A stretch of 64,000 nucleotides of DNA from Catajapyx aquilonaris (taxonomy: Eukaryota), in assembly GCA_000934665.2 (NCBI GenBank), contig KZ538130.1, positions 1-64,000 on the forward strand, given 5' to 3'. Positions 18,270 through 44,332 of this stretch are shown here, piece after piece. The first letter of the stretch is position 1, and each line of letters starts with the position of its first letter. The position numbers and the translations under genes were made by a program. The notes under the pieces were generated by a model, which made no database searches, was not told the origin of the DNA, and worked only from the letters and a program-made list of their open reading frames with translations.

Positions 18270-21200
18270 GACAGAATACTAGCAGTGATGTGGTCAGCAT
18301 TGATTTGGTTTTGAAACCGGTCCAACCAAACGAGGCGATGGTGGCAAAAGTGGCGGAATGGTCCTTGAAGTATGGTATCACCTTCATATCTGAACTTCAC
18401 AGGCTTCCCACCCTGCTAGGACAACATCTTCGAGTGGTAACAATGAACGTGAGGCCTCTTCTTATTGGATTAATCGAGTCAACCGGACAGATGTGGCACA
18501 CTGAGCAGTTCTTGGGAACCTTTTCAGGATCCTCCTAATGTGATTATAGAAGACGTGAATGGGACGCAAGTGACAGCATCTGGCTATCTTGTGGATGTCC
18601 TCAATATTGCTCAGGAACAGTTGAGATTCACGTACGTATTAGGGTGATTTTTGCCAAAGCTACAGGAATCACCCAACCTCCTGAGACCCCTGGTACAGTA
18701 TACTGTACCTTTGTTTTTTCCAGCACCTTCTGACTAACTCAAACGCGTAAAAAAACAAAAACAAAGGTGATTGAAAGGTGTACTAGGGGTCTCAGGAGGT
18801 TATGACCAGGAGCCGTATACTCATCAAGGACACTCGCAATCGACAAAGTCGATTGCGAGTGACCTGGATGAGTATACGGCTCCAGCACAATGTATGTATA
18901 CATATAATTTCTCTTCATTTGGCCTGCCTTTTCCCTTATTATGAGCATCGACGTGCAAAATATATAGTTACCTTCCCTCTGTGATTTGGAGCCAATAAAT
19001 TACTGCTCGTTCCATATGCCGACAAGGGAATTTAGAGTGTGTGTGTAATGGAACGCCAAATTGGAGAGGCCAAGTAATAAACGCGACCCTGATTGGATGA
19101 ACTTGATGCAAAAGTTTAATTCAGGCTGAGTGAGAGTTACAAAAATGTGAAAAATATGGGGGAAGGGCAACATTGCGAATGGGAATAACGAAAAAAAATA
19201 AATTGTCAGCCTGATGCACGACTGGTGTTTATTAAGCTTATTAAAACCGACAGGTGATGTACGTTGTTTTTAACAATTATACCGGGTGTTTCAGAAGTTA
19301 GCTAATATATAGGTTCAAACCTACGGCCCATTTTAAGTGAAATACACACTATTGATATGCTAATTATGGGCTTTCAACAATGTGCTGTGTAACTTATTGC
19401 CAAAATTGAAGGGACAGGAGCGAATGGAAATTAGAGTGAGATTTGTACCGATACTGATCTGAGCTAACTTATGAAACACGCTGTACATATGCTGTCCCAT
19501 TGTACGGCCAGGCACTACTAATTTTTAGTACTGCCAGAATGATTGAGGATAATTCTGCGGGTAATGTGGAATGCAGAGAATGGTGGAGTTCGCATACTGT
19601 ACAGTGCAGCAGAGAAATAAAAGTACAATGCTTAAAGGTTCAAATTCAGGAGATGTGTCTGTCATATGCCATATTACGTAAAAAAAATTGTTTAACTTAT
19701 GGGTACAGTTCTTGGACTAGGAACATAAGATATTTGGCATTAGTTCCGAGGTACATTGAGAGAGAGAAAAGACGCTGAAAATTTTAATTATGCATCACCT
19801 TCACATTACTATATCATTGATTGTGACTAGTGATATAGTGTTGCATTATATGACCATCAGAGGTGACAATGGTACGGTATATATCTGTCAAGCAAGGTGG
19901 CCTTCATATCAGCTATACAGCCTCATTTACAGGATGATTTTAATATACTGCACATGCTCGATATACTGTGGTGTTCAGTGGCGCAGGAACATGGTGGGGA
20001 CAGTGGAAACAAAGCCTCCCCCGCCCCTACTCATGGAGTAATTAGATCTAACGGTTATAGGGACACGGAAATTTATTTTTAATTAATCAAAGTGACATGT
20101 ACGCAGTACAGAAACCTATATAAGTTCTGCTTCTTTTCGGTCATTTCCCAGAATAACTTTATTCTGCGACGCAATATTCACTGTACCATCATTATTAAGT
20201 CTTCACTTTTTTCTAAAAATCCGCGGCTTTTGTCAAGTATTTTTATCGTTAGATCTTTTGTTCTCTTTGAGTTGCCTCATGCTATAATATAACTATTGTT
20301 AAGCGTTATGAAGCCATCCTAAAATTTTTCTGCGTAACCAATAAATCCGTTTTGTAGGGCACTACAACAAATTTTCGATTTTTCTCTCGCTTCGCTTGCT
20401 TTCTTGCGCATAACCGATTCTTCTTTTCATATACTGTACTACGTTATCAAGGAAAAACTTTTTCCCTGTACTTTCGCCATAATTTTTCCTAGCTCAATAT
20501 CATTAGTGAATACTTTTTCTAAAAATCAGCTTCTGAAAAGTTTTTGATAGTTTTCTTATAATTTTTGAGCCCCATGCTCTAATATCACAATTAGTAAGTT
20601 TTACACTGTGAAACCTGTCTGGACATAGCGACACCTTGCCTATTGCGTAACAATAGTTCTGTATACAAGCAGGCCAGAACTACTTGCAACATACACGTGC
20701 AATGCCTGATGTAAGGAACGCTTTATTCTACTTGCAATTGGGATTATCCTGAAATAATCATTCAACAATTGCAGCGCTTTACAATGCACGATGCTATTCA
20801 TTCAGCTTGACATACAATCCTATTCACTCTAAACACGCCCATAACCACTTACAATCCTGTCTCATATGAGAGCAGGAATTAGGAGAAGTTTTATTGCACA
20901 TTCTACTGACCTGATAGCCATTCGGACTATTCTAATTTCGAAATTCCATCCAAAGCCTATAATTAACACTCAGTCTTAAAATAAACAACACTAACTATGT
21001 TCTGACCAGAGATACATCCTGTGCTGTACCAATATAACAAGACTTGTGGACGTAGCTTAATGAACAGTACGTGACATTTCTTCCGATACTGATATAAGCT
21101 AAATGATGAAGCGCGCAGTATACAGTCTAGTCCTGATTAAATTGACAATAGAATTTTTCTATGGCAAGGAACTGCATCCCGCCCAGCAGTGAAACCGGGA

Positions 21201-26907: not shown

Positions 26908-29900
26908 CGGTTTGAAAATATTAAAAACATTCAATTCAAAAAAATATAAATGTCATAATGTGCATTTTTGTCAATTAGAAATGTATGTGTGTTACATAGG
27001 GTTCGGTAATATCCCGCGGATAACGGGGACTCACTGTGGCATCATGCAATGGATATACATGCACTTGCCTGTATCAGCCCTCCGACCTCCGACCTGTCCA
27101 TCTTCTCACCTATAATTTTCCACCCAACCTGCTGGACTAAAAGCAGTGTAAGGTAATGATATATAGTTTGGGATACAATTAACACCAAATTCCTTTATTT
27201 CCCGCGATTGCAATCTTTTTCTCTGATTTCATTCGGGAAAACAATACGCTCCGTGACGTCACTCTTATGTCGGATTCAAGGCAGGAAATTGCAGTCTATC
27301 CTGCTGCAGGAAATGGCATAGGAAAGCGAGTTCCAGCAGAGTAAAGGGGGGGGGGGGGGAAGGGAAATGCGATGATGGTAATTCTCGCGCTCCAAATTCC
27401 CTCCGTATAGGACGCACTTTCTTGATCCACCCAGACGTTACGCGCGTACATTTTTCTATAGGCATATTCTAAGCGCTCTGGCCTTTAAAATTTATCTCTC
27501 CACAAAAAACATTACGTTAAACTCTGTCAAACTTAAATCAAGACTAGAAAATCATCGATTCGCTCCATTTTTTCTAGTCAAGGAGGCGTATACTCATCCA
27601 GGTCACTCGCAATCGACAAAGTCGATTGACGTCAAAATGACGTCGCCAATGATGACCAGGGCAGGGCGAGGTTGCGAGTGACCTGGATGAGTATACGCCT
27701 CCGGATGTGTACCATCTATCGTTAATTATTTTTCTTAACATACTAGTACTATAGGCAATTATGTTGCCCGTAAACGAGTAAATTCTGCGCGTCCCTTAGA
27801 CTTGTTGTGTACGGAGCAAAATCGATCAAACCTAACGATTGGCATGCCATAAAAAATATATTGCCTATACCTTTGATTATGCGTTCATTGGCACCAAGTT
27901 TTTGTAATTTTTTTCCTCAGTGAATTTACTCGCTGGTTGTTCATTATAGAAAGGAAAACGGAAGGGTTTGAGGATAAAGCGTATGGAAAGCTAAGTGGTG
28001 AGTTTTTTTTTAAATATTTGGCACAAAGAACACGGTTCTTCCCTCTCAAGGCTTGGCTTCAACCTTCATCTTGACCTAATGCACAGACGTCGGGTGGGAT
28101 TCAACAATGTAACCCGTGCTAAAGGTAACAATTGACACGTCTCGTAATGAATCAGTAAAAATCAGGTACTTCCGTAGCTCGGTTCTCAAAAACTGAGCGT
28201 ATTTTTTTTTATATAACTAAAGATGTTTGTAAAATTTCTTCTTAAAGATGGGTTAAGGGTAAAATGAGGTTGTAGGATTGCACTCGGGAAGAAGAGTGTC
28301 ATTTATTCATTTTTCGGATTATGCTCTTTGAAATACCTGGATCCCAGTGATTGGACGAGTTGGGAGGACTCGATAAGGTATGTACGGTGTCGTCACGGAG
28401 CGTGTCATGTCCTTCCCATTGGCTTAGTCGTCATCAAAATCATGTACAGTGGATTGAGCAAAGAACCTCTCCCAACCCTCCACACACGTTTCATTTATTT
28501 TACTTTTTTTTTCAAAATCTTCTTCTTCTTCTTCGCTACCTTTGACGACTAGCTTTTTTAGTCCAATGGATTAGAAGCGGTGTGGTTTCTCTTCGTCTAG
28601 AAAACAGAGCTATGTGGTTGCAAGCAAGTTCACTCTTGGCTTCCTGGGCTGGGCTGGGCTGGTCTAGGTTTTAAACTTTTTAAAACACTGTCAACATCAT
28701 ATGAGGTACATGGTAATTCGGAGCCCGCCAACACAGCCCTGCCATGTGTATTTGCTTCTTTCGGAGGGGGATCTAGAAGAGATATAGTTGCATCCAACCA
28801 CATGGCTTGGTTCTCACATGGCAAAAAACGCAACATGCTAACAGCCAACAAAGTCCAACTCTCATCTTTTCCGCACCAAAAAAAAAAAAAAAAACAATCC
28901 AACTTTGCTAAAAAGTCCGTCGGGACTCTACAAAGTGAACGAGAACAACGACGGATTTGTGTATTTTTCTTCTTTTTTTCTCACCATTCAGCAGTGTACA
29001 CTGCGCATTTTTTTTTTAATGTTATGATGTCAGCCTATATAACGTAAATAGCCTATATAACGTACGAGTTACTGTACAATGTAGGTACAAATTGTCTCAT
29101 CAAATCTCTCGATCCTCTTCCTACGCGTGGCAGCTGAGCAATTGTCGAGTGGTTTCATTTTTTAAATTCCTGGTATACATAGGTGCGAATGAAAAGCTTT
29201 TTTTTTTTTTTTTTCAGGAGAGCGTTTCGCACCTGCCCAGCTGGTCCTCAAGCACGCGAAAATAGACATGATGTGTGGAAAATGGGTATTATGGGGGATA
29301 GGGTTATGGGTGTAGGTGTTAAGGGTATCAGTCTTTCCGGCTGCGAATCGAGTATTATATATTTCCCTCCCCCCCCCCNNNNNNNNGGGGGGGGGGGGAG
29401 GAGGGCATATTTTTAAGGGTATGTCAGTGGACAATTGGCGATTACGGAGTAGGTAAAGGAGCGGGTGAAAAATGAAATCCAGGTGTTGAAAAAAGTACGA
29501 CTTGTCACGCGCACAAACATACGCACGTTCTCTCGTTCGAACTATAAAGAGTGTCATTATTAATTTGTTTTTCTTCTTCTCTTATATATTTATATATATA
29601 TATTTTTAAATATCCCCACAGCAAAACGAGTCGGCACGCGCACAGTGTTTGTTTTGGGCACCTTTCGCAGTCGGGTTGTACCGTATCAAAGACTACGCAA
29701 TCGCGACGTTTTGCGAATAGAAAAAAGAAGGCGAAAAAGAGCTCGTCCTTGGGGGGCCAACTTTCTTCATCTTTCTTCATATCGTCATCTTCATGGTGCT
29801 CTGGGAGAGGGGGAGTATGGCCGTGCGTGCTTCACATATACACTGATCTCTCACGCACCCCCACACATTCGCGCAATCACACTGTCCCTTGCACGTCCTT

Positions 29901-30682: not shown

Positions 30683-33600
30683 TCACTCCAGTTCCTCCTC
30701 TCGGAACAGGTACGCCGACCAGTAGACCAGGTTGAAAAGGGCGAAGACCAGTGGGAATGTGATTCGAGAGATGACATCGATGCGCTTGGAGCGGGTCGGA
30801 AATTTGGAGAGCCAAGAGCGACAACAGTTGTCTCTCTTGGGCTGCATGTGGATTTCGCACTGACGAGCCTTCTCCAGAGCCAGAGCCTCATTGGCCACGT
30901 GGTGGTGGTGCACGAGGGGCTTCTGTTAGGACATCAATTAAAGGACAGCATTTCAGGGGTTGCAATATCCGATAAAATGTGTCAGGGGGATGAATGAAAT
31001 CGCGCGGCCCTAGTGGAATGCAGGGCAATTACAGTTCAGGGTTGAGGGGAAAGAGGTCGCTGTATTGACCGCAGCGCCATCTGGCCGTGATAATTGTTTG
31101 GTGGTAGTAGTCTGTAATTGAGTAAACTGACCATGGCGAAAGTCGTAGCGCCATCTTCTAGGTGGTCAGCAGCCGCTTCCAAAGTGGCGGCGTGCTCAAG
31201 TTCCCATTGTCGACGCTGGCTCTTGATCTTCTCTCGCTGCGAATCGCTACGAGAGGCATAGTTGACCAAGGCGAATTCCAACAGCGCCCCGAACACGAAA
31301 GTCAGGCACACACCTGTCCACACGTCGATGGCCTTTGTGTACGACACTGGTGGCAGGCTAGCGTTGATGCCTGACAAGTACACAATGTTTGTGTTAGTGG
31401 TGTTCATTACACTTATAACTGAATGCATACCTGAGGTCTGCGTGGCCATGGTAAGAAGCGTGGTGACCCCTAGGGACACTCGGGCAGGAACCGCACTCTG
31501 GTCCAACCAGAAAGACACCCAGGACACGATGACCAACATACAGCAAGGTATATAAATCTGGATCAGGTAGTACGAAAACTCTCGCTTGAAGAGAAGATCT
31601 ACTTTGAGGCAACTGTATTCGCCTGAGGGGAAAATAATGAGAATATTGGAAAGTTGAGCACGAAAAGTTCCGGAAGAGTTCACCTTCTTACCTGTATTGG
31701 TTCGACTGTTGCAATAGTCGGTGAAGAATCGTTCTAGAGCAAAACGTGGAAGGTTGAGTGTGTTGACTACTTGCACTGGATCGCCGTCTTTCCAGAGGAA
31801 CACGAGGTCATCTGTAGTCCATCCGTCTGAAAATAGCGCATAGGGAGAAAAAATAGCATTAGGAAACTATAGCCCATTTATAGGACACTGACATCTGTCA
31901 TGCATAAATAAGACATTTCTTTCCAGCCCAATGCACAGTGATTCGACAACATGATCCTGAGCCTGGCATTTCGGCCCGCCCACACAGTACAGGAGACGCA
32001 TCGGTCAAATAACTTCTAAGATGAACAACCTCCAAATGGCTTCCTTATAGGTTCATTGTATCACATGTTTCGAAATATACCGTATCGATATGTAAAGGTC
32101 ATTTTGGTTCAGTTCTTTCATTCGCATAGTATAATAATTTGGAACCATAGAAGTGCATTGTTGTCATCGTTATGCGCTTTAGGAATGGAATTTAAAAGGT
32201 CAACCGGACGCTCCTAATTGATGACCATTTTACGTAACCCGGCTATAGAGCTTGCACCATAGCATTTAAAAAACCCACTCAAATATCAGGCTCATTATGA
32301 AACTAAACTACTTGTGGTCAAAAATATGCCATCATTGGAACATATTAATGGGTCGGTTGGAGTGATTAAATTCCTTACAGTATTCGTGGTATACTGTAGG
32401 GTGCAGGAGACATACTGTACATGTGGCTTATTGGCATTTTATTTGCAAGGTCAAGAGTCTCAATTTGTTTATTCTATCCACATGCGCAACCTCGATTGCC
32501 TCTTGTAGACGGCGAATTATCCAATGAACAAGTGCGAATGTCGATACCGCACCATTATTGTAATGAAATCGAATATTATTTGACATTTACTAAGCTGATA
32601 GTGAGAGTAGGTAAAGACTTCATTATCTCGAAAATTCATTTACTATGCACACACAACTTGAGAGAAGCTTTCGGGCGTGGATTTTCTGGTACGCAAATAA
32701 AGCAGCTAAATACAGTAGGCCTATATATTTACACTAGCCTTTTATATATATATATATATAAAAGTGAGGCCAGACGATTGCAGATTTTAATAAAACAAAT
32801 GTGGGAATTGAGTGCACATGTATTGTACAGTACAGTACAACAATGCAATATTTGCAGAGAGTGCGAGGGTTCGTTAAGTGCTCACTCGAAACACTTCTGC
32901 AAAATTAACGCTCTTTAAACAGGTGCATTTTGAATAAGTAGGACGAAACCAGTCACATTCCGGTTACTTGGCAACAATTATCCTCCCGGCAAAATGCAGG
33001 GCTCTGCAGCGGTTCAACCGGGCGCAAGTAGCGTAAACGTCGTAAATAATGCTGGACATGTTTACCTACAGCAATGCATATATGAAAGTTTCTACTCACA
33101 ACTGGCCATGCGAAGGCTGCAGGTCTGTCGATCCAAAGGATACAGTTTGAGGTCCATGGGACAAGATAACGTCAAAGAAATTCTGAAAACAAATAGAAGC
33201 AACAATTATGTGACGTCAGGAGTAGAGTATGTACACAGTATACGTACCGTATGGAATATAACACCTGGCCGTCCGGATGGATTCTGACATATACGTTAGG
33301 CATGATGATCTCATGAAAGTGGCCATCCTTCTCATTAGAGAAGAAAAGATCGGGCATCCACACACGGCTGGGGTCAGTCAGGGTCAGGTACTTCAGCTTG
33401 CCTAAATAACACCAATAGAAGCGATAAGTCATAAACCAATCACCGTCTGTCTATCGAAACTCACCGCCGTAATTGTTGAACTTGAGCCTCTCGTCCAACC
33501 ACTGCTCTCGGAAGGTCAACTGGACACTGTATTCCTGCCAGACAAGTAAGTGGCAAGGTCAGTATCGTGCGGTTCGATTTCACAACGGAACACAGTCAAA

Positions 33601-36600
33601 TTCTCGTTCAAATAAATTTTGGGCGCCAAATCATTCGCGTCACATTCCAATTGTTCACCAAAAAATTAGCCAGCAAATTTTTCAACCGGAGAAAGTTCAA
33701 ATTTCATCTCATTTGGTCGTGCCGTGGACACGACAAGACACAGACGAGAACACGTGTGTGGACGAACACTACACTACAAAAAGTGGATAGTCAAAGAAGA
33801 GGAACCAAGCGATTATACGTCCTCACCTGCACCTCCTGGGAAAACCCCCCAGACCTTATGACTGCACCGTACCTTACATAATCAAGTAGACCCTTTTTGG
33901 AAGCTGGCCGCTTTTCAGACAGTCCTTAGCAACGGCTGATATCCCGTCGTTATATGGACTCGTGCTTGGCCGATGCCCTCCACTATATTCGCCAGCTTAC
34001 ACGGTTGACCTATACCTCACCTTTGCCTTCACTCCCACAGTACAGGTCAACCAATTTTGTTACCTATACCCCGGCTCTTTTCCTCTCTATTATGCGTCCA
34101 ACCTCGAGTCAATCGGTGGAAATGTCAAATACCGGCTTTGCTAGAAACTGTGTTCAAGGTTAGGTTGTATCCTTGTTGAATTGATTTCACGAGGAATGGA
34201 GGTATCTCGGTGCTGAAAAGTCATTTCTTGCTACTATTTTTCTTTTTTTTTGTGTGTGGTCAATTCTTACCTGACAGACACCGGTCCGAGTGATGGAAAC
34301 TTGTGACCGACTGTTAGAAACCCTTGTGACAAAAGTTTTTGAATGGTAGCAGGTGATGGACATTGCTACTTGTGACGTAGGGTTGTAAATGAGGGAATAA
34401 AAGAGGTGCTCACCTTGTGGTCTGTACGTCATGCCAGGTGAACATGGCCACATCAGAAGTTAAGGTCAGGTCAAGGTTGTGGTTGGTAACAAGGGTTTTT
34501 TTTTTCAGGATTTCTCATACACACACACACATATACACACACATACAGCGAAGCTGCCCATTTTCCTCCCCATCCTCCAATCATGTTCCCCTCCACAAAA
34601 TTATTTAACTTTTCTATCCATTTTGGTATTGTTTTTTTAGGGCAAGACGAAAGAAAATGAAGGAAGAAAGTAGAGGTGACACAGAGTTACTTTAATTTTT
34701 TTTTAAAAAGTTCTGAAGGCGAAGCGCATCCAAGAATTCACCGGATTTTGCTCGTCTCCTGTCAGTCTGGTACGAATACAATGTCCATCTAGCGAGTCAT
34801 CCACACCTTGTCTTTGGGGATTATATTTCCTCAATCCACTCGAGTGGTTCGACTTTTTTTCTCTCTCTCTTTTTCCTCTCCCTAATCTCTTCTCCAGGAT
34901 GGAATGAAGGATTTTGTTTCCTGCGCCAGAGTTCCAATGAAATCCGGAATGGTTTCCTTTCTTCATTCCACCACGCCAACCCGGATTTTCTATACTTTTA
35001 GGCATTTTTTTTTTTGGGGGGGGGGGGGGGGGNNNNNNNNNNNNNNNNNNNNNNNGGGGGGGGGGTTATATCTGCCAATGGAGCTAATGGTGCTCTGATG
35101 TTTCCCCGGATAACTTGGTTCTTGGATTCGTGTGGATTTGATAAACACCTCCCAAGTTTTTTAAAAAAAGGCATAGTCGTACTGTACACTCTTAACCATT
35201 TACCCTCTCTAGAGAAGGTAAATGGTTAAGAGTGTACTTCAATTACCCGGATCAAAATACGGTGTTGGGTGCGCTCCAAAAAGACAAGAGAGTGAAAATG
35301 TCCATACTGTCACCCTGATACTAAATGCTGACATCTGCCGGTACCCCCCCTAAAAAAGGAGAGAAAATTTAAAAGGCCAAACCAATTCCCAAGAGGGGAT
35401 ATAGGTATTTAAGACGCGACATCGGTTCCGGGTAATCAATCACGCCATTCGAGGCCATTTACTCTTTTAGTAATGGCTTCTTCCGTGGCTAAAGGACTCT
35501 CAAAACGTCGTCTTGCCAGATGCAAAACTGGGAGAGGCTACACCCCCCCCCCCCCCCCCCCCCCNNNNNNNNNNNNNNNNNNNNNNNNNNNNNNNNNNNN
35601 NNNNNNNNNNNNNNNNNNNNNNNNNNNNNNNNNNNNNNNNNNNNNNNNNNNNNNNNNNNNNNNNNNNNNNNNNNNNNNNNNNNNNNNNNNNNNNNNNNNN
35701 NNNNNNNNNNGTACTTTTGCACTTTTTTTTTTACGTGCTGTAAATTGTGTGTTATGGCTTCCCTGCTTTTTTGGGGGTGGAGGGGGGGGGGTCTCCCTTA
35801 GTAGCTATATTGTCATCAAGGCGACTGTTATCACTAGAGTCCGATATCGACTAGTAATATAGGGCCACTGGAGGGTTTCGTGGAGATACATCGACAGACT
35901 AGAGCATACAGTACCATGGAACTGGACACACGTGGATAAGCAACAATGGCTCAGGCACAAAAGAAACACGGCGAACATATATCGGGCGCTTTGGGAGAAA
36001 CTTAAAAAATGTTATTTAGAGGGGNCGGGGCGCATAGTTGTTTTTTTTTGAAAAAAAAAAAAAAAAATCCTCCCCCAAAGCGCTTTTCTACCCGATTTAG
36101 AAAAAAAGGGGGTTAGAAAACACGGAGCTCTAAATAGGACAGGTCGCAACCAATTTGTGTTTCGCGTCATATAAAAAAAAAGCCACAAATAAAAACTGAA
36201 TAAAGCCCAACTGTGAATGAACATATCACACGTCACCGAACTCACCATCTTGTAATCGTCAATGCGGCTGATTGATCGCAGGTAGATGTTGACATAGACA
36301 ACGACGGGAGATGCTGTTCCGATTTGGAAAAAAAAGCAATAGCTAATGAAATAAATGAACTAATGGGTCTAGTCTAAGTAACTTAACACTGCTTTTTTTT
36401 AATACTGCATTTTTCCTCCATTGGGTAGTGGAAATCAGGAAGAAGTTTGGAGAGGGACGTTGGCTCTCGACATTTTATCGTCTTTTGTTTGTTTTCTTGG
36501 AGGGGCATCAAGACCAAATAGCCGCTTTCACAATCAGCTTCCTGACAGGTTCACGTGTACGACTCTTGTGGAGAGGGTAAGGAGAAGAGGGGGATTTCAG

Positions 36601-39600
36601 AGGAGTGCATACCAGGAGTGACACAAGATCCACCATCGAGTTGGCTTTTGGTTAACTCGAGACAGACAGATCGCTCGGAGGAGGAGGAACAGGCATGGCC
36701 CCTAGTCAGTTGGGGCTGGGCAGGCAAACAAGGCAAAGGTTTTGGGGGTTCGAAAACTGATGTCGTGACGTCATCGGCGGAGCTAGCTGGCTGGCTCGGT
36801 CCGATGACGTCACCCGGCCGGCCTACCGATTCCAAAGTGACGTCGGTCGGCCTCTTTCCCCTTTGCAAGTGTGCTCCGCTAATTAGTGCATCTAGGGAAA
36901 TGGAGGCTGCCTGGGCTCACCTGATCGTCTCTCTCTCGACCAGATTCCCAGCTAGGCCTCCATTTCCCTTCTAGCGAAACTAGAAATGCCAAGCTTTAGA
37001 ACAAAGACACAATCGACGAAGGAGCTAGAAGGAGAAACTAAGGCTATCGTTGAAAGAATGGGAAATGTTGGGGCAGTTCCGCTCAAACTTACCATGGTGA
37101 CGTCATCAATTTTCGAAATACTTCGAACGTAAATGTTGACCGTTACGATGGTGGGGCCATCTATCAGAGGGGACGGAAACAAAGGCTGTTATCTGTGGCA
37201 GTGGTTTCGCTGATTTTTTTAAAAAAATATATATTTTTTTCTGATCAGATAGATCCTACACGTCAAGGCTGCAACCCTAATGGTTGCCTCTTTCTGCTAA
37301 TTACGATCAGTTGTTGGCAAGCAAGCATGCAAGCAAGCTCGTGGTGAAACCCAAACGGCTTTAACGATTCGCTCTAGAAGCCTATAAAATTATAGACGAT
37401 TGCCTCAACCGCGTCGCAAACGACCACAAATACATAGTTACGGCACTATTGTTCTCGTCCTTAGTTGGTACGCGCCTCCAACCATTCTGTCCCGTCTGCT
37501 TTCCATTGCCCGCTAATTGCCCCACCCAATTTCACCCCTATTTCAAGAGTCAAACCAACAAAGAGCCCTATCTACCTAACACCCCCTCCCCCCTATTTTG
37601 TCACACAGAACACTAAATACCTAGCCTACTGCAGGTCGTAAACGCCGACACTCTCTCGCATACTCACACTGAATCAAATATGGACCAGTACTGTTGGGTT
37701 CGCGACACGTTCAAAAATTCAGTCGCAACATGGCCTACTTTGCAGGTAATACTCTTGTCCAATAAAAATTGCAATTGGGTTGACACTGTGCAAGTGCATA
37801 TTGATCATGATGGCGTCAGGTGTGTCAGGTAGATCAATGATTAGAGGCCAACTTTATTTCCGGTTAAAACAGAGCAACCCGCATTGCTGAATGACTGCAA
37901 ATATGGCAGTGGTAGCATATGCAAAATTTTATTACATCACATTAAAGCCATATTGGTCGAGCGCCACCTAAGCCCCCCCTAAAATGGGCACAGTATGCAA
38001 AATAACGTCACTATTGGAAAATTGTCCGCGAGATGTTTCTCACCATAGCGAGTCGAATCAGATGATGTGTTGACGTTAGACCCCCAAGAAATACTGGTCC
38101 TTCAGAAAAGTCTATCCAAACCCGGAATCTTGTTACTCTCGAGTGTAGGCTTTTTTTCACCATATTTTTAATTTTTTTTTGGAGTTATTGTTTTAGGGTA
38201 GCCCATAGCATGATGACAAAATGAAATGGCTATCCACTCAACCCACACCCCACCCACACCACAACAACCGCTTTGCTGCCCTTACCTCCAGTAGCTGACA
38301 CGTTTGTAGTAGCAAACGGAAGATCAAGAAAAACAGAAAAAGCTTTTCGTTAATATCAATTAAGTTCGCTTTTACAAAGGGGGAATGAAGATTTTTTGGG
38401 GGGTCATAAATCAGTCGTCAAGTGCCAATGTTGGAGGAGGAGTCTTCTTTGTTGCTGAGGCAAAACAAGACGAGAAATTCCAGTCATTTTCCTCCTCCTC
38501 CAATTCACTTGTCAGTTGTCGGCCCGTAAAGAGGCGTGGCCCGTCCCATTTATGAAATTCCGCGTCCCTGCCAACCAGTCTATCTCCTCGGGTCTTTACC
38601 CATGAATCAGGACAGCAAAGTCTTCTTCCGCATGCAAACTGCCCAATCGTAGGCCACCGACTACACTCTTTTTTAAAAATTTTAATATTAAAAAATATCC
38701 AGCCCTCACTATGCATTTGCAAAAAAATCCTACCAACACCGCCTTTTTTTCGATATCCACATGTTCAAACCAAAACTATCAAGTCCAACAAAACTTACAT
38801 AGACATGCATTACATGCCAACTAACATTGAGGGAGCAAGAAAAAATCTACAAGAAAGTTCTTTTAGAATCACGTTCTTATTATTGCATGCTAAACGTGAT
38901 TCGAAACGAACTTTTCTTGCATCCCAAACACTTTTAATATACCATTTAGTACAATGTGATACTGTATGGTAATCAGTCCAACAGGAATTGTCGCAGCGGC
39001 AGCGCACGAACTACAATCTACGAGCAGAGACTGTAGTTCGTGCGCTGCCGCTGCGACAATTCTTGTTGGACACCAGGTACACAACAAAAGTTACTGGAGG
39101 CTTGGTTCACGTTGCGTGCTTCGTAAAAGTACATATGGCACGTTCCAACCCTGACCTTTTTTTGTTTTTCTTGTTATTGTGAGAAACACGACCTGAAGCA
39201 AACGGTACCCCCGCCGTACACTTCAGGGGTTTCTATTTTTTTTCAGGTCTATCTGGCTGGAAGAATCCCTGCCTGCCTCACAAATGGCCATTTCACGTTT
39301 CTAACTTGATTGCATTTATTGATCTAGCACTTGTGTGCAACCTGTCGTGCCTCTCGTCCATTTCATCTCACGTTCGTTTCTTCTCTAACAAATGTTTTTT
39401 TTCTTCTTCATACACTAACAAAAAGATGTCTTCAACAATTTTCTGGGAGCTGAAACATGTCGGCAGTGGTAATCCAAGCAGCACTTACCTATCGTAGCAA
39501 TGACCAGTTCACATGAGGTCAAGAATACAAGCTCCCATCTTCTGGCAAATACAATTTTTTTTTTTTTTTGCTACCCTAGACTTGTCCCATTCAAAACTTT

Positions 39601-42600: not shown

Positions 42601-44332
42601 AGCAAACGTCTGTGTTACAAGCTAGCGAATTCCGCCCAAGTTATACGTTACATTATGCACAATTTGTTTGTCAATCGACTTGAATGTGAAAGATTCCAAT
42701 ACTTTATGTGTAATCCAATGTCAACTGGACCAGTGAACGATTGCAGTGAGTGAGAGAGAGGCTTTTGTTCTCATTGCTAACGCTGCAGTCTCGTTCGATG
42801 CAATTTACGCGACATTGGAAAAACAATTACTTTTCCTTAACGACGTTTGGTCACCGGAAAACAATCCAAGTTATTGAAAATCAATAGAAATCGAGTCGGA
42901 ATCACCATTTGGCAGTCGGTTCGACTTGCGTATGGAGATTTCGACCCCCCCCCCCTCCCCCCCAAAAAAGCACTGGCAACATTCATCTTCAAACAAACAA
43001 CTCATTAAAATCTATTAGTGCTGATGGGTTTTCCAAAATTCTGAAACGAACATTTGTTAGAAAAGGATTCACTTTGTTGACTTCCTACACTGCATAGAGT
43101 GGTACAAATTCAATGACTCTGGCTGCCGTTGGCGACCATCCTGCCTGCAAGCGACCGATTTAATTGAACGTTTCCTGTCACACCACTATTGGCAAGCCAA
43201 TTGATTCTCTTAAGGCTCTCTTGAATCACTTCAACATTTGCATCAATCGGCCGGTTGCTTCACTGGAGCTTTTTTTTTGGTGTCTTCTCCAAGTAGTACA
43301 CCCATCCCAATTGATGCTATAGTCATGCAAAAAAATTCCAGTGGCATTTACTAGCAAATAGGCAGCCTTCCATTTGATAGCAGCAGGCTCAGGTGGTTCT
43401 ACGGCAGCAGAGGCCTAGAACACCACCCAACACAATGCTGGAGCAGTCGAGCTGTGATCAAATGCTGTGTAGAATAGAAATGCTAAGGGGAATGAGACTC
43501 ACCCGTTCCATTGAGACCAGGCGGACGGATCTTGCTGTCGTAGCGTCCTTGGCCTAAGATTTGGTCCAGCACCTGCTTCTCCTTCTCTCGGTAGTTGATG
43601 CGCTGCTGGGTTGCTCTGCGGATGCCCCCATACATTTGACGTCAGCTTTGGCCCGTTACATTTTTACTAACATTATCCCTTTCTACACACTATGCTGGCT
43701 GCACTAATCAGCGGAATTCCAGAGGTGGTCGGTTTGGTTTGGCTACTGGCCTGCCATGTCTCAAAAGTCCCAACATTATGACCAAAAAACAGGGGGGAGG
43801 CCCGAAATGCTCCGAATTCTTGGGACGCTTACGGTTCTCCCTCCCTGAATAATAAAAAAGTAAATTAAAACCGGGGCTAGTCCAGTGTCAATAATGAAAG
43901 CTAATTGTGTTTTGGAAGGGGTAATAAGCTTCGTGTTTATAAATTGCGTGTGACGTAAGGCCAAGTCAACAACCCCTGTCAGTCCGCTGCTACTACTACT
44001 ATTACTACTAAGGGTACAAGATTCAAGTTAAGGTCCAGCCTTGTTATTAATTAATAGCAAAGCAAACTTGCATCTTGCTCCTAAGAGTATACTAACAATG
44101 CTGAAGACAACAAGTTGCGGGATGCCCTGAAACTGCATTTATTATAATGAGAAGGTTCACCGCCAAAATACTGCAGCTCTGAGTCAACGGGAGTTGACTT
44201 CCAACCCCGGGCAACACTTTGTGAAAAGCTAATCATCTCAACCAATCTCAACACTCACCGTCCGCTGGGACACAAACATAGCAGTAGCAGCGCAGCGAAG
44301 AGATGGACCGCTGCCAAGGATATCGGCTTCAT
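30683..44332 (-). CDS. GluCl: Glutamate-gated chloride channel alpha subunit (Cys-loop anion channel), 10 coding exons per isoform, 455 aa
   Basis: Exons 44332-44259 (signal peptide [24 protein letters not shown]), 43615-43503 ([26 protein letters not shown]), alternative exon 3 at 37160-37093 or 36313-36246, then 33534-33465, 33401-33248, 33182-33100 (Cys-loop [15 protein letters not shown]), 31826-31692 (loop [10 protein letters not shown]), 31622-31431 (M1, PAR motif, M2), 31370-31132 (M3), 30922-30683 (M4, stop). All introns are GT-AG with matching phases, and the exons total 1368 nt. The second Cys pair [13 protein letters not shown] and the tail [14 protein letters not shown] match arthropod GluCl as I recall it. 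Confidence 0.96.
36246..36313 (-). CDS. GluCl: GluCl alternative exon 3, DDYKM type (A)[22 protein letters not shown]
   Basis: 68 nt, acceptor gaacag, donor ATG|gtgagt, same phases, clearly paralogous to the 37093-37160 exon. It is too short for the ORF track. Confidence 0.9.
37093..37160 (-). CDS. GluCl: GluCl alternative exon 3, DDVTM type (D)[22 protein letters not shown]
   Basis: 68 nt, acceptor ctgatag, donor ATG|gtaagt, phase 1 in and phase 0 out, matching exons 2 and 4. Confidence 0.92.
38976..39071. repeat. 96-bp hairpin in GluCl intron 2
   Basis: About 40-bp near-perfect stem starting gtccaacaggaattgtcgcagcggcagcgcacgaactaca. Confidence 0.85.

Follow-up and report, generated by a model that had tools for sequence, protein, structure and literature searches.

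A cluster of short inverted repeats links exon 3a of a Catajapyx aquilonaris GluCl gene to the following intron and is predicted to fold as one composite structure

An arthropod GluCl gene lies on the minus strand of the window, that is, the whole stretch of 64,000 nucleotides (nt) of Catajapyx aquilonaris DNA analysed here (assembly GCA_000934665.2, contig KZ538130.1, positions 1 to 64,000), and a cluster of short complementary segments connects one of the two exon-3 variants of this gene with the intron that separates them. The open reading frame at 31039-31866 matches insect, crustacean and chelicerate GluCl proteins with 63-74% identity, none being closer among the 120 matches listed, and the exons were mapped from about 43623 down to 30710 by tblastn with four GluCl proteins. 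The two variants, DDVTM (exon 3a) and DDYKM (exon 3b), are ancient types carried by many insect GluCl isoforms. The two exons and the intron between them are given below.

37093..37160, minus strand: exon 3a (DDVTM), 68 nt, donor ATG/GTAAGT; placed by translation, RNA-contig joints and the open frame in the spliced model
36246..36313, minus strand: exon 3b (DDYKM), 68 nt, donor ATG/GTGAGT; placed by translation, RNA-contig joints and the open frame in the spliced model
36314..37092, minus strand: intron between 3a and 3b, 779 nt; ends taken from the contig joints

The RNA evidence consists of contigs of X1, the single public run holding the locus, whose kind is not on record and whose contigs behave as spliced RNA. 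One contig (depth 8.81) joins exon 2 (last base 43503) to exon 3a (37160-37093) and then to exon 4 (from 33534), and a second contig (depth 3.94) joins exon 2 (43503) to exon 3b (36313-36246) and then to exon 4 (33534). Apart from being spliced, the contigs are identical to the window, and all introns are of the GT..AG type. The two exon-3 variants that the earlier note had recognised on either side of a complementary intron are therefore each joined to exons 2 and 4, indicating that they are real and mutually exclusive in the X1 sample. In the spliced models, 3a alone or 3b alone gave an open frame, while 3a and 3b together, or neither of them, led to stops in exons 4-5. Since each of the two exons has 68 nt, double inclusion and double skipping shift the frame into early stops, so RNA structure is not needed for exclusivity at the mRNA level. 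The 3a-3b intron is unique within the window, where blastn matched only its own inverted repeats, and no Rfam match at E <=1 was obtained inside it.

On the transcribed minus strand, the complementarity reported in the earlier note was confirmed position for position. Intron segment A (36749-36769) pairs with exon positions 37097-37117 by 18 Watson-Crick pairs and 1 G-U pair, with 2 mismatches in 21 nt, and segment B (36803-36814) pairs with exon positions 37096-37107 at 12/12 positions, stopping 3 nt before the donor. On the A side, an alternative register with a 5-nt bulge was also found (8 + 12 pairs, duplex -24.5 kcal/mol). The local hairpin, described together with these segments, pairs at 13/13 positions between 36801-36813 and 36765-36777, but its inner stem has 7 pairs in RNAfold where 8 had been claimed. 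Three copies of the 11-mer GATGACGTCAC fall within 350 nt: one in the exon, a direct one at the 3' arm of the hairpin and an inverted one in B. Their number at such short range points to copying. Outside the helix predicted between exon and intron the complementarity ends sharply, with 9 Watson-Crick and 5 G-U pairs among the 43 remaining positions of exon 3a. The elements of the cluster are as follows.

37104..37117, minus strand: exon arm of the predicted 14-bp helix, UUCGAAAAUUGAUG; delimited by pair probabilities and present in the minimum free energy and centroid structures (the segment of the earlier note was longer, 37097-37117)
36749..36762, minus strand: intron arm A', CAUCAGUUUUCGAA, 331-344 nt downstream of the 3a donor (segment A of the earlier note was 36749-36769)
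36765..36777, minus strand: 3' arm of the local hairpin, CCGAUGACGUCAC; 13/13 pairs, and contains a direct copy of the exon's GAUGACGUCAC
36801..36814, minus strand: 5' arm of the local hairpin; overlaps B (36803-36814), which complements exon 37096-37107 perfectly over 12 nt
36778..36800, minus strand: inner imperfect stem and loop of the hairpin; 7 further RNAfold pairs
36894..36969, minus strand: another strong hairpin of this intron; two perfect 14-nt arms (36894-36907, 36956-36969), inside the loop closed by the exon:A helix

In addition, exon 3a carries at 37112-37127 a pair of TTCGAA palindromes separated by 4 nt, together making up a small self-complementary 16-mer. Palindromes are unusually frequent in the 3' third of this exon, so that it is more likely to match inverted copies.

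To describe the predicted folding, the transcribed strand was folded in windows of 376, 461 and 1221 nt, and the results agree with each other. The local hairpin is predicted with a probability of 0.67-1.0 (86-nt local fold, -37.3 kcal/mol), and a 14-bp helix is predicted between exon 37104-37117 and intron 36749-36762, with 13/14 pairs at 0.91-0.99 and the outermost pair at 0.66-0.68. The helix spans positions -12 to -25 of exon 3a relative to the donor and positions +331 to +344 of the intron, and lies two nucleotides from the 13-bp hairpin. It ends 11 nt before the 3a donor, which is not paired by it, and the donor together with about 340 nt of intron falls within the predicted enclosed loop.

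Since the hairpin and the 14-bp exon:A helix involve an overlap of only 5 nt, they coexist in the predictions, mostly with a probability of at least 0.9. Forcing the full 21-nt exon:A pairing raised the energy from -159.2 to -152.9 kcal/mol (+6.3), and forcing exon:B raised it from -159.2 to -152.6 kcal/mol (+6.6), while the unforced exon:B pairs had probabilities of at most 0.27. The proposal of a two-state switch that masks or frees the exon was not borne out, because the pairings said to compete coexist in every fold and forcing the alternatives costs more than 6 kcal/mol. In this folding model, a balanced switch would require a trans-acting factor. Compared with shuffled sequences, both strands fold much more stably (z -5.96 for the transcribed and -4.85 for the opposite strand, 0/100 shuffles each), and strong predicted folding of both strands would fit DNA-level inverted repeats as well as RNA function.

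The pre-mRNA (43650-33400) was scanned for partners of exons 3a and 3b, their acceptor regions, the exon 2 donor region, the exon 4 acceptor region and the A/B region. Exon 3a alone has partners (scores 36 and 33), no further strong one came up, and the best sites for exon 3b (32 and 31) are unrelated. A docking-site/selector arrangement is not present: the scan found no docking site shared by the two variants, and the pairings are neither mutually exclusive nor comparably stable (costs of 6.3 and 6.6 kcal/mol).

Whether the complementarity exceeds chance depends on the null used. As a local background, 68-nt tiles were compared with their own downstream 779 nt, and 95 of the 1679 tiles (5.7%) reached an ungapped score of at least 36, the score of exon 3a with its intron, including 40 (2.4%) with scores of 36-45; sampled versions of this null gave 5.1-5.9%. 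At a background of about 5%, about one match at this level is expected in the 20 comparisons of exons with flanking introns in this gene, and one was seen. With RNAduplex, exon 3a gave -44.5 against -33.5 +/- 3.4 kcal/mol for shuffled sequence, with none of the 300 shuffles as good, and for exon 3b 111/300 shuffles were as good.

The window is also rich in repeats of the same kind. It contains 22 perfect hairpin-type repeats (perfect arms of at least 13 nt, spacer of at most 60 nt, not low-complexity) against 0-2 per shuffle in 20 shuffles (mean about 0.15). With arms of 13-42 nt among the 22, the 13-bp hairpin ranks as the shortest, and the 14-bp one in the same intron is among them. The arms at 18809-18883 and 27582-27702 share sequence and so apparently belong to one repeat family. 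The palindromic octamer TGACGTCA occurs 9 times in the window, where 0.73 are expected, and in unrelated contexts: paired at 27254/27627, 36766/36805 and 48071/48121, and as single copies at 33211 (in a 65-nt intron), 37098 (in exon 3a) and 43637 (immediately upstream of the part of exon 2 that aligns). As this octamer is over-represented, B and the hairpin are helped by the palindrome, in agreement with the earlier remark that B is favoured by its palindromic core. The complementarity is non-random, yet of a sort that this genome often makes.

To find related loci, a degenerate pattern for the peptide I-S-K-I-D-D-V-T-M followed by GT was searched, giving 13 metagenome loci, all translating to a DDVTM exon 3 and representing 7 distinct sequences; there were 0 loci in prokaryote genome contigs and in viral contigs. 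Only exons align between these loci and the window, with 73-82% identity, and no intron aligns. Conservation, which had been named as a check on the elements, was not found: they are absent from the 7 distinct orthologous loci, whose introns cannot be aligned and which are all distant (exon identity 73-82%). The octamer TGACGTCA is present in 0/7 distinct orthologous exons, where synonymous sites differ and so remove it, and it occurs nowhere in the 13 loci. Within up to 2 kb downstream, no complement to the last 25 nt of the exon scoring above 27 was found in the 7 distinct loci.

The loci L012 and L013 are closest in peptide and are the only others with a verified layout of 3a followed by 3b, with about 1.5 kb between the exons. 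They carry their own predicted 19-bp helix, which joins the middle part of exon 3a to the intron at +1029 (L013 2257-2275 with 1178-1196, identical in L012), with 16 Watson-Crick and 3 G-U pairs, a score of 42 and a pair probability of ~1.0 in a 1140-nt fold. L004 scored 33 (reached by 23/1000 shuffles and at a rate of 5% in the real-sequence pool), and L001 scored 28 (161/1000 shuffles), which is not significant. The upstream introns of L012/L013, L004 and L001 scored 20-26. An ancient inverted copy of the whole exon was considered and rejected, since outside the helices the Watson-Crick matches are at chance level (9/43 in the window, 4/17 and 9/32 in L013). Judging from these sequences, the relatives, few and distant as they are, may be said neither to establish nor to exclude a recurrent masking of exon 3a.

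The loci L002, L003, L005 and L006 (with duplicates L010, L007 and L009) are GluCl-like and have a single DDVTM-type exon 3 and no second variant. In them, exon 3 (VNTL[VI]...) is followed by one long exon for the rest of the ligand-binding domain and the membrane domains; this layout was read directly in L002 and assigned in L003, L005 and L006 by a conserved block of 730-840 nt.

Our preferred explanation, to which we give about an even chance, is a neutral cluster of short inverted repeats, specific to the lineage and seeded on a palindrome made by codon choice. The cluster would be built on the octamer TGACGTCA, which exon 3a carries only because of the codon choice for D-D-V-T. A small local inverted duplication, by template-switch-like copying, would have put the 3' end of the exon into the intron, and the same process seems to have scattered hairpin-forming repeats through this genome. 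In the pre-mRNA the cluster is predicted to form a single composite structure and not a switch, with the 14-bp exon-intron helix standing beside a constitutive 13-bp hairpin. We infer both this mutational origin and the dispensability of any regulatory role. Template-switch mutations create hairpins as near-perfect short inverted copies close to their template. At this locus there is a near-perfect inverted copy near its template, it is sharply bounded and such repeats are dense; the distance between exon and copy (~330 nt) exceeds the one typical of such mutations.

Several results weigh against a neutral repeat cluster. In shuffles of the intron, an ungapped score of at least 36 was reached in only 3/3000, close to the earlier equal-base estimate of 4e-4, and unlinked real sequence (the rest of the window on both strands, 124,800 bases, free of the antisense of exon 3a itself and of antisense homologous exons) held 0 sites of at least 36 against exon 3a. 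In the 20 comparisons of exons with flanking introns, exon 3a with its downstream intron ranks top at 36, the next scoring 33. The only pair of the 14-bp helix that is not Watson-Crick is a G-U on the transcribed strand. The score of the L012/L013 helix was reached by 0/1000 shuffles and by 0 sites of the 124.8-kb pool, while in the four single-exon-3 loci there was no outlier, no segment reaching 27 in three of them and the fourth scoring 29. The match also lies between the alternative exons, a place in which exon clusters are known to have regulatory RNA structures. Moreover, the orthologues reached were all distant, so that from these sequences we only infer the neutrality of the repeats.

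A possible though rather doubtful alternative is that the structure acts as a damper of splicing: the 14-bp exon:A' helix, buttressed by the hairpin, would mask the last third of exon 3a and enclose its strong donor. Less use of the first-transcribed 3a would then let exon 2 splice to 3b, the helix only setting the ratio, while the reading frame, through nonsense-mediated decay of double inclusion or skipping, would enforce exclusivity. This is consistent with the prediction of the helix at 0.91-0.99 in three fold windows, with the rarity of the match against shuffled and unlinked real sequence, and with its restriction to the intron between the variants, since exon 3a scores 23 with the upstream intron and exon 3b scores 31 and 20. 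Both isoforms are present in the RNA contigs, and an independent analogue is found in L012/L013 as well as a marginal one in L004 (33, 23/1000 shuffles). On the other side, the match is ordinary given the local repeat density of the genome, the helix stops 11 nt before the donor and leaves it outside, L001 shows nothing (28, 161/1000 shuffles), and there is no conservation of sequence, the paired part of the exon differing between the window and L013. A wider form of this idea, that arthropod GluCl genes with 3a followed by 3b may repeatedly evolve an intronic anti-exon-3a segment that would fold away the exon transcribed first and so set the 3a:3b ratio, with exclusivity left to the 68-nt length and nonsense-mediated decay, is unlikely; its cases may be the window (14-21 nt against the 3' end of the exon) and L012/L013 (19 nt against the middle of the exon), and selection on pairing rather than on sequence would let the element move along the exon between lineages. 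For a damper speak also the silencers, one in the exon and one in the intron near the donor, that repress a GluCl exon 3 variant in Spodoptera, as described in the available part of PMC13512814, and against it the related Drosophila Rdl (DmRdl) exon 3, for which a competing RNA structure was tested and excluded, being judged not to be the main mechanism in the portion of that paper at hand (PMC13762713).

The two other explanations assign a role to the duplex or to the octamer itself. It is very improbable that the intron holds an editing-complementary sequence, as the earlier note had also suggested, by which the duplex would recruit ADAR to adenosines of the S-K-I-D codons and recode a conserved loop-D-proximal motif in the 3a isoform only. 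An imperfect exon-intron duplex of the ADAR type is present (predicted helix of 14 bp; 2 mismatches over 21 nt), the arrangement, in which the exon pairs through its 3' part with an intron element ~330 nt downstream, matches that of known sites, and the helix plus the stacked hairpin nears 27 bp. Exon-intron editing duplexes are known from the Q/R and R/G sites of GluA2, and a helix of 14 bp is short for ADAR. The element is not conserved in the orthologues reached. The expectation of editing was not supported by the X1 contigs over exon 3a, which in this one run are identical to the genome, with no other letters and no A-to-G at depth 8.81, although contigs hide minority variants and low-level editing could escape them. 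For I27V of Drosophila GluClalpha, which is residue five of the mature protein, an intronic editing partner has been validated, and the site is edited at 75-96% in four species, as given in the accessible text of PMC11373593; the likeness lies in the gene family and in an exon-intron duplex with a partner a few hundred nt away, and the difference is that this site lies outside the alternative exon and is strongly edited, whereas no A-to-G was seen in the X1 contigs. The same holds for all sites listed in table S1 of that paper, as far as it was available (K26K, I27V, K241R, N345S, K347E and K348E; PMC11373593), which are outside the alternative exon, and no GluCl editing was seen in Tribolium (PMC2064938). 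An isoleucine near 43600 of the window (exon 2, ...RINYREKEK...) appears from the sequence to correspond to the I27V site; in the X1 contigs that cover exon 2, no other letter is seen there. It is also improbable, if somewhat less so, that the two intronic TGACGTCA copies in the 13-bp inverted repeat act at the DNA level as cAMP response elements, that is, as candidate bZIP (CREB/ATF-type) enhancer sites, the exon match being incidental and due to the exon's own octamer. Full octamers stand in the intron at 36766 and 36805, 5 of the 9 octamers of the window (0.73 expected, unrelated contexts) fall within the GluCl gene span, and the patch 36750-36850 has a GC content of 0.57-0.62 and a CpG observed/expected ratio of 1.1-1.5, compared with 0.42 and 0.79 for the window. 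This reading gives no account of the further 14 nt by which A extends past the octamer (CAUCAGUUUUCGAA) and which form the best-predicted helix, and the octamer is found in none of the 13 orthologous loci (7 distinct).

Among known systems, the window comes close in geometry to those in which an exon or its donor is masked, namely ISTL1 at SMN2 exon 7, the stem at chicken beta-tropomyosin exon 6B and the donor stem of MAPT exon 10. In such systems the end of an alternative exon pairs with the downstream intron a few hundred nt away, as in the window, and exons 6A and 6B of beta-tropomyosin are likewise a mutually exclusive pair. The window differs from these stems in that its helix stops 11 nt short of the donor and may be a neutral repeat; the helix covers exon positions -12 to -25, and only the B pairing, at a probability of at most 0.27, would reach -4. 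With Dscam1, 14-3-3xi and Mhc the window shares RNA pairing in the introns of a tandem-duplicated exon cluster, which has been proposed to steer exon choice (available parts of PMC4691838 and PMC6071210). In those genes the arrangement is conserved, and one intronic docking site alternates between intronic selectors beside each variant, as described in the same portions (PMC4691838, PMC6071210). In the window, one arm is exonic, only 3a has a partner, and the alternative pairings are energetically unbalanced.

A full-text literature search found no RNA-pairing or editing mechanism for GluCl exon 3, in line with what the earlier note had supposed, and GluCl is not mentioned in the available parts of the two papers on RNA pairing in exon clusters (PMC4691838, PMC6071210). 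Within the same exon cluster, a minigene study of Spodoptera frugiperda GluCl (2026) described two silencers of exon 3B, one of 20 nt in the intron and one of 11 nt in the exon, which the accessible text ascribes to RNA-binding proteins with no discussion of base pairing (PMC13512814). It resembles the window in that the elements repress, or would repress, one variant of this cluster, but the intronic element of Spodoptera lies at +13 to +32 (PMC13512814, as available) and that of the window at +280 to +344.

The interpretation of the earlier note is thus partly supported overall. The element in the 3a-3b intron is more likely to be just one among the many small inverted repeats that this repeat-rich genome contains, and if it is merely a repeat, its chief value would be a caution on judging complementarity by equal-base expectations. 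Should the helix prove functional, it would give cys-loop receptor exon clusters their first described case of control by RNA structure, would belong with the known exon-intron duplexes at alternative exons, and would offer a simple testable handle in the form of one 14-nt intronic element. GluCl is the target of avermectins and fipronil. Its exon 3 variants differ in pharmacology and have been linked to resistance, as stated in the available part of PMC13512814.

Further features were observed in the GluCl gene outside the 3a-3b intron. Four introns are very short, with lengths of 60-69 nt (31371-31430, 31623-31691, 33183-33247 and 33402-33464), and since two of them are read through in frame, 31039-31866 looks like one open frame of 276 aa. 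In the intron between 3b and exon 4, N runs of 23 and 146 bases, flanked by long G/C homopolymers, occur at 35016-35065 and 35543-35792 and look like assembly gaps. GluCl intron 2 contains at 38976-39071 a hairpin with 44-nt arms that are 95% complementary and an 8-nt loop, at which Rfam mir-228 was matched on both strands with 41.5/38.9 bits (E 6e-7 and 3e-6), both short of the gathering score, which is 45. For this stretch, X1 depth peaks in the bin 38903-39339 (18.4), and at 38972 and 39081 contigs continue as unlike sequence. This hairpin is either a repeated element or a small-RNA precursor.

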